Shown: positions 18,420-24,551, counted from the stretch's first letter. The stretch: 64,000 nucleotides of DNA from Escherichia coli (GCF_003334335.1 NZ_QOWQ01000001.1); one strand, 5' to 3'. A program made the numbers and translations. The notes: generated by a model not told the origin, from the letters alone.

Positions 18420-19352
18420 TTACTGACAAATCACCGTTCCTGTTTTGCCTTCAATCCCTTCTTTCGCTTTGCTCAATACGGTAATCAGTGCTTCACGACC
18501 TGCGCGAGAGCGAGCAAACGAGGCGGCAGCTTCCACTTTAGGCAGCATAGAACCTTTCGCAAAATGACCTTCTTCGATAAAGCGTTCAGCATCACTTAAT
18601 GACAGGCGATCGAGCCACTGTTCATTCTCTTTACCGAAGTTAATGGCCACTTTTTCTACCGCAGTCAGAATGATCAGCATATCGGCATCAATCATTTCTG
18701 CTAAACGGGCGCTGGCCCAGTCTTTATCGATAACCGCGCTGGCACCACGCAGATGGTTACCTTCACGAATAACAGGGATACCACCACCGCCAACGGTGAT
18801 CACCACCTGACCTGCATCTACCAGAGCTTTAACCGTTTCTTTTTCAATGATATCAACCGGTTTTGGCGAGGCAACAACACGGCGATAGCCGCGACCAGCA
18901 TCTTCTTTCAGAGTGTAACCCTGTTTTGTCAGTTGCTCTGCTTCTTGCTCGGTAAAGAACGAACCGATCGGCTTGGTCGGGTTGAGGAATGCCGGATCGT
19001 TAGCGTCGACTTCGACCTGAGTAACCAGCGTTGCTACAGGTTTATTAATGCCCCGAGAAAGCAGTTCTTCTCTTAAAGCGTTTTGTAGATCGTAACCAAT
19101 ATAACCCTGGCTTAATGCAACACAGACAGACATCGGCAGCATTGGCGAGTGCGCTTCAGTTTTTGCGGCAGCTTCAAAGGCCTGGTTAATCATGCCCACC
19201 TGCGGCCCGTTACCATGAGTGACGATAACTTCATGTCCCTGGGCAATTAAATCAACAATTGCCTGAGAAGTAATTTTTACCGCTTTCATTTGCCCGGCCA
19301 GGTCATCGCCCAGCGCATTCCCGCCCAGGGCGAGAACAATTTTCTTACTCAT
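18420..19352 (-). CDS. yqeA: Carbamate kinase-like protein
   Basis: 310 aa, starting MSKKIVLALGGNAL with a THGNGPQVG motif, as in the carbamate kinase family. Confidence 0.92.
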   Translation of the reverse strand: MSKKIVLALGGNALGDDLAGQMKAVKITSQAIVDLIAQGHEVIVTHGNGPQVGMINQAFEAAAKTEAHSPMLPMSVCVALSQGYIGYDLQNALREELLSRGINKPVATLVTQVEVDANDPAFLNPTKPIGSFFTEQEAEQLTKQGYTLKEDAGRGYRRVVASPKPVDIIEKETVKALVDAGQVVITVGGGGIPVIREGNHLRGASAVIDKDWASARLAEMIDADMLIILTAVEKVAINFGKENEQWLDRLSLSDAERFIEEGHFAKGSMLPKVEAAASFARSRAGREALITVLSKAKEGIEGKTGTVICQ

Positions 19353-19399
19353 TTTTCCTCACTCATCATTCTTGATTGTGTATAGATCCCTGGCAGTGG

Positions 19400-20785
19400 T
19401 TAGAGCACGGGAGGGACAAACGGTTTGCGTCGCAGGAAACGACCTCGCCCGGCTTTGCCTGTAAAGGTGCCGTCACAGAAAATCGTTTCACCACGGGATA
19501 AGGTTCTGACAATCGCGCCCTGACAGGTAAAACCCTCCCATGGCGAGTAGTCGGCGTTGTCGTGGAGATGGCGATGCTGAATTTGTTGGCTCTGACGTGG
19601 GTCGATAATCACCACGTCGCCGTCGGAACCGGGCGCTAATAATCCTTTTTGCGGCCACAGGCCAAACAACCTGGCGGGCATTGCGCTGGTTAATTCAACA
19701 AAGCGTTCCGGTGTTATACGTCCCGTCATCACGCCACTGGAAAACAGTAACTGCATGCGGTTTTCCACACCGGGTAAGCCATTTGGGCAGCGACTGAAAT
19801 CGCCTTTAGAAATTTGCAGGCGTTGAGCCATCGAGAAGGTGCAGTGATCGGTTGCCACCACGTCAATCGCACCATCGCTGATGCCACACCACAGTTTGTC
19901 CTGCTCGCGTACGTTACGCAGCGGTGGGCTAAGAATGAACTTCATGCCATCTTCTGTATCGTAACTGCGTTCGTCCAACAGGAGATATTGTGGGCAGGTT
20001 TCAACCCAGACTGGCTGGTGATTCGCACGGGCAAGACGCAGATAATCCAGACCTAAGCCGTTAGACAGGTGCACGATATAGAGCGGGGCGTTACCGGCAA
20101 TTTGTGCCAGGTTAATCATGCGGGCGATGGCTTCCGCTTCGCATTCCAGAGGGCGACTCAAGGCATGATAGCGCGGCGCGGTTAACCCTGCGGCGATAAA
20201 TTCCGCCCGCTTGCTGGCGATAGCCGCATCATTTTCCGGGTGCACGGTGGTCAGCGCGCCGGATTCATGCAAGCGGCGTAATGCCTGCAAAACCTCGTCA
20301 TCGTTGAGTTTGTATTGATAGGTTAAATAGAGTTTAAAACTGCTCAGTCCTTCCTCGACCATCATCGGGATTTCGTCGAGGATTGCGTGATTAATGTGCT
20401 GGATCACACCGTGAAAGCTGTAATCGATGACCGCTTTATGGGCGGCATAACCACGATAAACCTCCAGTTGATGGCGTAACCGACAGCCGTTTGGGCCAAA
20501 TCCCATATGGTCAATAATGGTTGTTGTACCGCCACACGCAGCTGCGCGGGTACCGGTAAAAAAATCATCACAACTGCGCGCGATGCCGACATCAATATTG
20601 AAATGCGTATGGACATCCACGCCGCCAGGGAAAACGTAACAGCCAGTGGCATCAATTTCTTCATACGGGAGCTGCGGCGAAATATTGTTGCCCAACTGGC
20701 GAACAATCCCGCTTTCAATCAGCAAATCCTGTTTGGCTTGTCCATCTGCGTTAACGACAGTGCCGTTTTTGATCAATACGCGCAT
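19400..20785 (-). CDS. hyuA: D-hydantoinase / dihydropyrimidinase-family amidohydrolase
   Basis: 461 aa from MRVLIKNGTVV. It has the GGVDVHTH metal motif. The sequence is recognised as HyuA (YgeZ). Confidence 0.92.
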   Translation of the reverse strand: MRVLIKNGTVVNADGQAKQDLLIESGIVRQLGNNISPQLPYEEIDATGCYVFPGGVDVHTHFNIDVGIARSCDDFFTGTRAAACGGTTTIIDHMGFGPNGCRLRHQLEVYRGYAAHKAVIDYSFHGVIQHINHAILDEIPMMVEEGLSSFKLYLTYQYKLNDDEVLQALRRLHESGALTTVHPENDAAIASKRAEFIAAGLTAPRYHALSRPLECEAEAIARMINLAQIAGNAPLYIVHLSNGLGLDYLRLARANHQPVWVETCPQYLLLDERSYDTEDGMKFILSPPLRNVREQDKLWCGISDGAIDVVATDHCTFSMAQRLQISKGDFSRCPNGLPGVENRMQLLFSSGVMTGRITPERFVELTSAMPARLFGLWPQKGLLAPGSDGDVVIIDPRQSQQIQHRHLHDNADYSPWEGFTCQGAIVRTLSRGETIFCDGTFTGKAGRGRFLRRKPFVPPVL

Positions 20786-23303: not shown

Positions 23304-23360
23304 ATCCTATCCTTTTGGCCTCTGGAAATAGAGGGCCGACCAGCTGATCGGCCCGAGGGG

Positions 23361-24551
23361 TTATTTCACGCGTTCTTGCGCTTCTTTCAGCAGTTGCTCG
23401 AGCAGTGCACCTGGTTTGGCGTATTTACGGGACAGGATCATCGCGGCGATGATATAAGGCTTCCAGCTGGCTTCTTTGTAGGTAGCGATACGGTATTTTT
23501 CGAATACGCCTTCAGTCACTTCACCTTCTTTACAGGATACGCCGCTGATATCAGCTGGCAGGCAGTGCATGTACAGGGCTTCGCCATCACGGGTCAGTTC
23601 CATCATCTCTTCAGTACAATGCCAGTCTTTGTGTTGCGCGTTCTGTGCCAGACACTGTTTTTCCAGTGCTTTTAAGCCTTCGTGATCGTTCGCACGCAGC
23701 AATTCAGTACGCTCTTCCATCACTTTGTAAGGTGCCCATGACTTCGGATAAACGATGTCTGCGTCTTTGAAGGCTTCTTCCATGCTGGTGACCTGACGGA
23801 AGCTACCACCGGAGGCTTTAGCATTGTTTTTCGCCACTTCAACCACATCCGGGATCAGGTCGTAGCCTTCCGGATGGGCCAGGGTGACATCCATACCGAA
23901 GCGAGTCATCAGACCGATGATGCCTTGTGGTACAGAGAGCGGTTTGCCATAGCTTGGAGAGTAGGCCCAGGTCATGGCGATTTTTTTACCTTTCAGGTTT
24001 TCCAGTGAACCAAAGTGTTCACGTAACCACGCGAGGTCAGCCATTGACTGAGTCGGGTGGTCAATATCGCATTGCAGGTTCACTAAAGCCGGACGCTGTG
24101 GCAGTACACCCTGCTTGTAACCGTCATCAAGTGCAGCGCCAACTTCACGCATATAGGCGTTGCCTGCGCCCAGATACATATCGTCGCGAATACCAATAGC
24201 GTCGGCGCAGAAGGAGATCATATTGGCGGTTTCACGCACGGTTTCGCCGTGAGCGATTTGTGATTTGCCTTCGTCGAGATCTTGTTGTGCAAGGCCGAGC
24301 AGGTTAAGCGCGGAAGCATAAGAGAAGCGGGTACGGGTGGAGTTGTCGCGGAATACGGAAATACCTAATCCACTATTAAAGACTTTGGTTGAGATGTTTT
24401 CAGCACGCAGTGCTTTTAATGCTGCGGCAACGTCCAGTACTTGTTTCAGTTCATCTGGCGTCTGTTCCCACGTTAACAAAAAATCTTTCTCGTGAAGGTG
24501 AGAGGTCAGCGAATTGATATCCTTAATCAGCTCATTAACAGTTTTCATCAT
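23361..24551 (-). CDS. ygeW: Knotted catabolic carbamoyltransferase
   Basis: 396 aa. It has the transcarbamylase motifs STRTR and HCLP. The sequence is recognised as YgeW. Confidence 0.92.
   Translation of the reverse strand: MMKTVNELIKDINSLTSHLHEKDFLLTWEQTPDELKQVLDVAAALKALRAENISTKVFNSGLGISVFRDNSTRTRFSYASALNLLGLAQQDLDEGKSQIAHGETVRETANMISFCADAIGIRDDMYLGAGNAYMREVGAALDDGYKQGVLPQRPALVNLQCDIDHPTQSMADLAWLREHFGSLENLKGKKIAMTWAYSPSYGKPLSVPQGIIGLMTRFGMDVTLAHPEGYDLIPDVVEVAKNNAKASGGSFRQVTSMEEAFKDADIVYPKSWAPYKVMEERTELLRANDHEGLKALEKQCLAQNAQHKDWHCTEEMMELTRDGEALYMHCLPADISGVSCKEGEVTEGVFEKYRIATYKEASWKPYIIAAMILSRKYAKPGALLEQLLKEAQERVK

Follow-up and report, generated by a model that had tools for sequence, protein, structure and literature searches.

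What is broken down by the five co-oriented genes that lie at positions 18420-24551 of a 64-kb stretch of Escherichia coli DNA (GCF_003334335.1, NZ_QOWQ01000001.1)? The initial annotation of this stretch (hereafter the window, in which all positions are numbered) described the genes, ygeW-ygeX-ygeY-hyuA-yqeA, as a module with an undefined input and with intermediates that were not firmly established. Our analysis indicates, with a probability of roughly 93%, that they form the distal half of a route for anaerobic uric acid degradation, the reductive pathway (known also as the 2,8-dioxopurine or 'yanthine' pathway). The first description has been overtaken on both counts: since 2025 the input has been known to be 2,3-diureidopropionate, formed from urate via 2,8-dioxopurine, and the intermediates have been named and reconstituted. 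The pathway is already known for this organism, and no new enzyme or step emerges from the window; the new part is the regulatory anatomy of the module (sigma54 promoters, a palindrome and hairpins), which we did not find in the papers that we consulted.

According to a mechanical list of open reading frames (ORFs), the interval is filled by five intact ORFs on the minus strand, and its two ends correspond to the yqeA stop codon and the first ygeW ATG, in agreement with the arrangement first annotated; the Prokaryotic Genome Annotation Pipeline (PGAP) uses the second ygeW ATG, at 24548. The initial annotation named no strand, but its gene order was already that of transcription. In this order, the genes are as follows, separated by spacers of 57, 57, 52 and 47 nt.

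23361..24551, minus strand: ygeW, 396 amino acids, knotted catabolic carbamoyltransferase (ORF list, NF005538, PDB 3Q98)
22107..23303, minus strand: ygeX/dpaL, 398 amino acids, pyridoxal phosphate-dependent 2,3-diaminopropionate ammonia-lyase (TIGR03528, PDB 4D9G)
20838..22049, minus strand: ygeY, 403 amino acids, M20 (ArgE/DapE-like) amidohydrolase (TIGR03526)
19400..20785, minus strand: hyuA, 461 amino acids from the RefSeq start at 20785, D-hydantoinase/dihydropyrimidinase (mechanical ORF 19400-20797)
18420..19352, minus strand: yqeA/arcC, 310 amino acids, carbamate kinase (TIGR00746)

RefSeq lists the same five genes (as ygeW, dpaL, ygeY, hyuA and arcC) for strains that are 100% identical over the module. 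Taking as the criterion of family membership a full-length match above the curated cutoff of an NCBIfam model, with Pfam as a second check, we found such a match for each of the five enzymes under the identity first assigned to it. YgeW scored 825 bits against NF005538 (cutoff 453) and 676 bits against TIGR03316 (cutoff 500), with residues 1-395 covered and both the OTCace_N and OTCace domains present, whereas ornithine transcarbamylase models gave 133 bits, far under their cutoff of 281. Its match to 3Q98, a solved E. coli structure, spans all 395 residues (896 bits); the knotted fold is taken from the title of the structure paper and the NCBIfam name, through this sequence match. YgeX reached 651 bits against TIGR03528 (cutoff 532), carries a PALP domain and aligned with another solved E. 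coli structure, 4D9G, over residues 1-398, its whole length. For YgeY the score was 722 bits against TIGR03526 (cutoff 322), with Peptidase_M20 and M20_dimer domains and acetylornithine deacetylase as the nearest solved relative. HyuA matched TIGR02033 (676 bits, cutoff 393), its best solved relatives being D-hydantoinases at about 370 bits, and scored below the cutoffs of the allantoinase and dihydroorotase models. YqeA matched TIGR00746 with 386 bits (cutoff 358), and solved carbamate kinases matched it with up to 305 bits.

The pathway to which we assign these enzymes was solved in 2025 by two independent studies using E. coli proteins, those of Li et al. (PMC12507026) and Liu et al. (bioRxiv 10.1101/2025.04.24.650524), and a commentary that compares the two agrees on the pathway (PMC12990295). 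Conversion of urate to pyruvate was reconstituted stepwise in vitro with E. coli proteins (PMC12507026; bioRxiv 10.1101/2025.04.24.650524). In the upstream half, XdhD-YgfM reduces urate to 2,8-dioxopurine, YgfK dearomatises the latter to its dihydro form, and SsnA converts the dihydro form to 5-(ureidomethyl)hydantoin, the compound fed to HyuA (PMC12507026, PMC12990295). In the distal half, HyuA opens the ring of ureidomethylhydantoin to give 2,3-diureidopropionate, YgeW releases one ureido group by phosphorolysis as carbamoyl phosphate, YgeY hydrolyses the second ureido group to leave 2,3-diaminopropionate (DAP), and YgeX converts DAP to pyruvate and 2 NH3 (PMC12507026; bioRxiv 10.1101/2025.04.24.650524). 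YqeA turns carbamoyl phosphate and ADP into ATP, NH3 and CO2, and given 2,3-diureidopropionate, ADP and Mg, YgeW and YqeA made ATP together while neither enzyme did so alone (bioRxiv 10.1101/2025.04.24.650524). Mutants of both E. coli and Clostridium sporogenes accumulated the matching 13C-labelled intermediates (bioRxiv 10.1101/2025.04.24.650524). Earlier work had shown that the genes are urate-inducible in three phyla and are needed for the conversion of urate to acetate in E. coli, and had implicated ygfT, aegA and ygeV in formate-dependent urate use, as the initial annotation correctly stated for ygfT; in addition, a 2013 bioinformatic paper described ygeW through yqeA as syntenic with ssnA and the xdh genes.

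Each function that was proposed from the sequence has been borne out by this published work. A hydantoinase was expected to open a cyclic ureide, and HyuA acts on ureidomethylhydantoin in both 2025 studies; the M20 enzyme was expected to decarbamoylate, and YgeY removes the remaining carbamoyl group; a transcarbamylase running in reverse was paired with a carbamate kinase for ATP formation, and YgeW and YqeA together make ATP in vitro. The cluster was placed in the distal half of an anaerobic purine route, and reconstitution and mutants alike show urate catabolism. Substrate assays and the tracing of 13C-urate in mutants, the experiments suggested at the time, have both been published with positive results, and the coupling of YgeW to YqeA, whose failure had been named as grounds for abandoning the proposal, was tested and seen. 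Among the substrates suggested for YgeW, the DAP-derived carbamoyl compounds proved correct, while oxamate and ureidoglycine-like compounds are not physiological.

Applied to the window, these data suggest the following course of events. The products of xdhD-ygfM, ygfK and ssnA would supply 5-(ureidomethyl)hydantoin from urate, and HyuA would hydrolyse the hydantoin ring to 2,3-diureidopropionate. Phosphorolysis by YgeW would then yield carbamoyl phosphate and a mono-ureido aminopropionate, and YqeA, by passing the phosphate to ADP, would gain one ATP for each urate (substrate-level phosphorylation) and release NH3 and CO2. YgeY would free 2,3-diaminopropionate, which YgeX would deaminate to pyruvate and 2 NH3, with the pyruvate passing into fermentation. 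The four genes of the upstream half are intact in the window:

11655-14753, minus strand: ygfK, upstream half of the urate pathway
10324-11652, minus strand: ssnA, upstream half of the urate pathway
9494-10273, minus strand: ygfM, upstream half of the urate pathway
6627-9497, minus strand: xdhD, upstream half of the urate pathway

The neighbours named in the initial annotation, xdhABC, the purine permease genes xanQ and ghxQ, guaD and ygfT, are present as described, together with ygeV, yqeB, yqeC, mocA, ygfK, ssnA, ygfM and xdhD. All genes of the reductive urate cluster lie inside the window except uacT, which is located just past its left edge in a matching genome. The locus, gene order and neighbours are the same as those of the reductive uric acid degradation system described in E. 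coli K-12 and C. sporogenes. Although the window comes from a non-K-12 strain, its DNA from 18200 to 25026 differs from that of K-12 MG1655 at 1 of 6827 positions, which is nothing of substance, and four of the five module proteins are identical to those of K-12, the sole protein difference being I142M in HyuA. This substitution arises from the single nucleotide difference, in codon 142 (20360-20362), and several natural isolates with 100% identity across the module share the allele. In a comparison with 5426 complete E. coli genomes, 5179 contained the module stretch and 247 gave no match at megablast sensitivity; one genome carries a plasmid copy. For a genome that matches the module at 100% identity, the annotation gives a decayed ETT2-like type III secretion island to the right of xdhA (which would correspond to about 31900-44500); the island includes an IS1 copy, a tRNA-Gly gene and several genes that are frameshifted or truncated.

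Two other functions for the module have to be weighed against urate degradation. Older annotations (D-phenylhydantoinase, DAP ammonia-lyase) would make it mainly a general system for the detoxification of hydantoins or dihydropyrimidines and of diaminopropionate, unrelated to urate. HyuA does match a generic D-hydantoinase/dihydropyrimidinase model and bears the RefSeq name D-phenylhydantoinase, YgeX acts on free DAP (bioRxiv 10.1101/2025.04.24.650524), and some ygeW/ygeY loci of Bacteroidota and Verrucomicrobiota have no purine genes nearby. Nevertheless, E. coli does not grow on DAP (bioRxiv 10.1101/2025.04.24.650524), labelled urate no longer reaches acetate in ygeX, ygeY, ygeW and hyuA mutants, which build up intermediates derived from it, urate induces the genes in three phyla, and they are tightly linked to ssnA, ygfK and the xdh genes, all of which leaves a detoxification role highly improbable. 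Slightly more improbable still is a role of YgeW as an oxamate or ureidoglycine transcarbamylase that works with YqeA in allantoin or oxalurate fermentation. This idea takes oxalurate fermentation as an analogy, together with a Rubrobacter ureidoglycine carbamoyltransferase that adjoins a carbamate kinase, but the Rubrobacter enzyme belongs to a different, pseudo-aspartate transcarbamylase (pseudo-ATCase) group, intermediates of the oxidative or allantoin route were not found in mutants (bioRxiv 10.1101/2025.04.24.650524), and the demonstrated substrate of YgeW is 2,3-diureidopropionate (PMC12507026; bioRxiv 10.1101/2025.04.24.650524).

Within the urate pathway itself, the two 2025 studies differ over the ureido group that YgeW takes off. 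Liu et al. report removal of the 3-ureido group to give 3-amino-2-ureidopropanoate, identified by standards and fragmentation (bioRxiv 10.1101/2025.04.24.650524), and the commentary lists regiochemistry, stereochemistry and kinetics as open (PMC12990295); our literature search found no later publication that settles the regiochemistry of YgeW. We lean weakly towards the assignment in which YgeW would act on the side-chain (3-ureido) group and YgeY on the N-alpha group, because the kin of YgeW use omega-amine acceptors and those of YgeY are N-alpha-deacylases. The closest kin of YgeW beyond its own family are N-acetylornithine, ornithine and putrescine transcarbamylases, with aspartate transcarbamylases scoring much lower, and the closest relatives of YgeY are the ArgE/DapE N-alpha-deacylases. 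The three kinds of transcarbamylase carbamoylate an omega-amine, and the N-acetylornithine enzyme does so on an N-alpha-acylated diamino acid; by this analogy, 2,3-diureidopropionate may be regarded, as we infer, as a short analogue of N-acetylcitrulline.

Several published results weigh against this order. Li et al. report that the 2-ureido group is removed and that the product is albizziin, in conflict with Liu et al.; the product of HyuA and YgeW co-elutes with commercial albizziin, and albizziin is converted to pyruvate by YgeY and YgeX (PMC12507026). A point against the pathway reading as a whole is that the HyuA assayed by Li et al. was that of Clostridioides difficile and not that of E. 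coli (PMC12507026). Albizziin also builds up in an overexpressing strain, and in C. difficile YgeW/YqeA are replaced by UacY, a homologue of D-aminoacylase, whose family cleaves N-alpha-acyl groups (PMC12507026). The same pathway may hence run in the reverse order, in which YgeW would phosphorolyse the ureido group at position 2 (N-alpha) and leave albizziin (2-amino-3-ureidopropionate), whose 3-ureido group YgeY would hydrolyse. We give this order a substantial chance, somewhat short of even. It is opposed by the product identification of Liu et al. and by the omega-amine and N-alpha-deacylase preferences of the two enzymes' kin, and the commentary treats the point as open (PMC12990295).

Comparison with known systems places the urate module among routes with a similar logic. 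With the arginine deiminase pathway it shares the phosphorolysis of a ureido compound to carbamoyl phosphate and the formation of ATP by carbamate kinase, but the donor is 2,3-diureidopropionate instead of citrulline, and YgeW belongs to a separate knotted family. The reductive degradation of pyrimidines (PydA dihydropyrimidine dehydrogenase, PydB dihydropyrimidinase and PydC beta-ureidopropionase) uses the same steps, namely ring reduction, a cyclic amidohydrolase and decarbamoylation, a parallel also drawn by Li et al. (PMC12507026); the urate route differs in that it handles two rings and two ureido groups and conserves one carbamoyl group as carbamoyl phosphate. Beyond their own families, YgeW and YgeY find their nearest solved relatives in N-acetylornithine transcarbamylase and acetylornithine deacetylase (ArgE), which belong to the alternative arginine route. 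By analogy, each pair would act on a diamino acid bearing N-alpha-acyl and omega-ureido groups; YgeW and YgeY differ in their catabolic direction, in the three-carbon backbone and in an N-alpha carbamoyl instead of acetyl group, and the likeness is one of homology. Finally, C. difficile follows the same route from urate through diaminopropionate to pyruvate with UacY in place of YgeW/YqeA and UacX in place of YgfK (PMC12507026). There the ureido group is lost by irreversible hydrolysis and no ATP is gained, whereas E. coli retains the energy-conserving YgeW/YqeA pair (PMC12507026; bioRxiv 10.1101/2025.04.24.650524).

The association of these genes was also examined across other species. We collected 80 ygeW loci of other species, which are the best 80 of at least 598 matches and not a random sample, and searched them with the window proteins. 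YgeY was encoded in 62 of the 80, directly upstream on the same strand in 36, and carbamate kinase in 38, directly downstream of ygeW in 19; YgeX, HyuA and SsnA were found in 33, 31 and 29 loci, respectively. Full 10-kb flanks were available for 39 loci; one or more of ssnA, ygfK, hyuA and ygeX occur in 32 of these, and carbamate kinase in 27. This synteny agrees with the published distribution (bioRxiv 10.1101/2025.04.24.650524).

A different setting was observed in Bacteroidota, Verrucomicrobiota and some other metagenome-assembled genomes (loci L028-L042, L071 and L083; e.g., 8788-11194 in L039 and 10001-11191 in L083), where a YgeW 67-74% identical to that of E. coli is encoded amid housekeeping genes (dnaN, glnA, folP, signal peptidase), often with only a YgeY homologue, directly upstream, for company. 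No carbamate kinase, ssnA, ygfK, hyuA or ygeX was found within 10 kb of these loci, and such genes may sit elsewhere in the genome. On the basis of these stand-alone pairs, YgeW-YgeY might be a more general unit for the removal of ureido groups, with substrates beyond the products of urate, a suggestion that we consider doubtful. If it is true, the E. coli module might take other inputs, for example dietary ureido amino acids of the albizziin type, and the question of its input would be only partly closed.

How, then, is the module controlled? The elements that we recognise around ygeW and at two other promoters of the urate cluster are as follows.

24643..24657, minus strand: sigma54-type -24/-12 element TGGCACACTTATTGT, 109 nt before the ygeW ATG, conserved across genera
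24701..24716, minus strand: CRP-like site TGTGATCAACCCCACA in conserved columns, upstream of the -24 element and downstream of the candidate activator sites
24859..24871, unstranded: candidate YgeV enhancer site TATCAATATGAGA, a one-mismatch TATCA-N3-TGATA about 205 nt upstream of the ygeW -24 element
14826..15023, minus strand: ygfK control region, with a sigma54-type element TGGTGCGATTGTTGCT at 14826-14841 and a perfect palindrome TATCATTATGATA at 15011-15023
30563..30710, minus strand: xdhA control region, with a sigma54-type element TGGCGTAAATCTTGCC at 30563-30578 and motifs TCATATTGATA at 30677-30687 and TATCACATTGATT at 30698-30710
25027..26805, plus strand: ygeV, a divergent gene for a sigma54 enhancer-binding protein with PAS, AAA+ sigma54-interaction and Fis-type helix-turn-helix domains

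The ygeV-ygeW spacer is 475 nt long, and TGGCACACTTATTGT is its best-conserved block, the rest being about 50% identical across 11 genera; its -24 GG is at 24655-24656, and at -12 the element has GT where GC is expected. Published work records sigma54 promoters ahead of ygeWXY and binding of the sigma54 holoenzyme within the spacer. A scan of the module region for sigma70 promoters gave 4 matches, fewer than the 7.4 in shuffled sequences, and we propose no such promoter. Li et al. reported a native Crp site in the ygeV-ygeW spacer and repression of the pathway by glucose (PMC12507026), and the CRP-like site TGTGATCAACCCCACA fits both observations. A putative PurR-like operator, AAACGTTTTCGT at 24751-24762, was discarded: we take it to resemble a PurR box, but it differs from GCAAACGTTTGC by 2 mismatches, and matches of this quality are no commoner in the window than chance predicts (5 found, 4.5 expected), and the block is conserved only in E. 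coli, Citrobacter and Klebsiella.

The inverted repeat TATCA-N3-TGATA, or a near-copy of it, occurs upstream of four promoters, those of ygeW, ygfK, xdhA and ygfT, at a distance that would suit activator sites (about 80-250 nt from the promoter). Upstream of ygeW, the columns of the TATCAATATGAGA site are invariant across 9 genera, and further half-sites or near-copies lie at 24832-24842 and at 24957-24969, the latter with one mismatch. The sigma54-type element and the palindrome of ygfK keep their position in 9 other genera; the xdhA control elements, of which the motif at 30698-30710 is a one-mismatch palindrome, are conserved in Citrobacter, Klebsiella and Mixta. An exact 11-mer, TATCAATATGA, is found upstream of ygeW, xdhA and ygfT (233 nt before ygfT, just left of the window). 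Over 392 kb from 19 gammaproteobacterial ygeW loci, 23 perfect palindromes were counted where about 0.35 would be expected; 12 of them are located 257-433 nt before ygeW, and most of the others about 250-280 nt before ygfK. Dependence of ygfT on YgeV has been reported, and the operons that carry the palindrome are those of the YgeV iModulon. We therefore propose TATCA-N3-TGATA as a candidate YgeV enhancer site, since the promoters bearing the motif coincide with this iModulon and a Fis-type helix-turn-helix domain suits an inverted repeat. YgeV is presumed to be the activator of the module. On this model, the module would be transcribed from the sigma54 promoter 109 nt before ygeW, the divergently encoded YgeV would activate from TATCA-N3-TGATA sites about 200 nt upstream, and CRP would modulate expression.

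Two other copies of these motifs were noted. TATCAATATGA recurs in a fourth exact copy at 54680-54690, within kduD and distant from the urate cluster, which we treated as a chance occurrence. A perfect TATCA-N3-TGATA is present inside ygeX, at 23015-23027, about 280 nt into the coding sequence; it is kept in Citrobacter and Klebsiella (at 11521 in loci L004 and L005 and at 10375 in L006), with a varying central triplet, and is absent in more distant genera. The intragenic copy could be a regulator site or reflect a coding constraint.

The spacers within and behind the module hold three further elements.

23333..23354, minus strand: 9-bp GC-rich hairpin in the ygeW-ygeX spacer, conserved, with no T-tract
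20801..20820, minus strand: conserved 8-bp hairpin between ygeY and hyuA, immediately ahead of the hyuA ribosome-binding site (z = -2.8)
18207..18414, minus strand: operon 3' end, with two identical 28-nt hairpins (AGGCCGGGTGGGTAATACCATCCGGCCA) at 18387-18414 and 18207-18234 (z = -5.1 and -6.8)

Across 7 genera, compensatory changes were seen in 5 of the 9 pairs of the ygeW-ygeX hairpin and in 3 of the 8 pairs of the ygeY-hyuA hairpin, and no structure was detected in the hyuA-yqeA spacer (z = +0.9). The latter of the two hairpins is followed by a T-run (TTTTT in E. coli) only in E. coli and Citrobacter among the genera compared. Because the T-run is so restricted, both internal hairpins seem to be partial terminators, or elements of processing or stability, rather than full terminators. 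Situated after ygeW and after ygeY, they would probably set the levels of proximal relative to distal genes. RegulonDB-style usage names a ygeWXY operon. The two hairpins at the 3' end flank about 150 nt that contain two REP-like (repetitive extragenic palindromic) palindromes in opposite orientation, in the convergent yqeA-yqeB spacer (18200-18419). The distal one carries a T-tract and serves as a terminator. The REP pair seems to have been inserted with a duplication of the terminator hairpin, and the arrangement in K-12 is identical. An Rfam scan of 17500-25500 revealed no riboswitch or leader, and its only matches were sub-threshold REP-associated ones in the yqeA-yqeB spacer (ES036/CssrF with 36.3 bits, cutoff 37.6, and naRNA4).

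Some observations speak against this regulatory scheme. The sigma54 pattern TGGCAC-N5-TTGC with one mismatch was found 5 times in the whole window, compared with 5.8 expected; as the motif count provides no evidence, the ygeW promoter rests on cross-genus conservation and the published binding. The gammaproteobacterial loci are related and share ancestry, so that the palindromes counted in them are not independent events, and the copy upstream of ygeW in E. coli itself is imperfect. Moreover, hyuA is in the published gene list of the YgeV iModulon and yqeA is not, which, together with the terminator-like hairpin before hyuA, makes co-transcription of all five genes less certain.

Gut bacteria dispose of about one third of human uric acid by this pathway, and published work shows that it provides ATP and a fitness advantage; efforts are under way to build it into probiotics against gout. 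The layout of three sigma54 promoters and the predicted YgeV operator could guide the study of the large strain differences in urate consumption that exist despite near-identical enzymes, and both could also guide the design of strains in which urate degradation is independent of induction.

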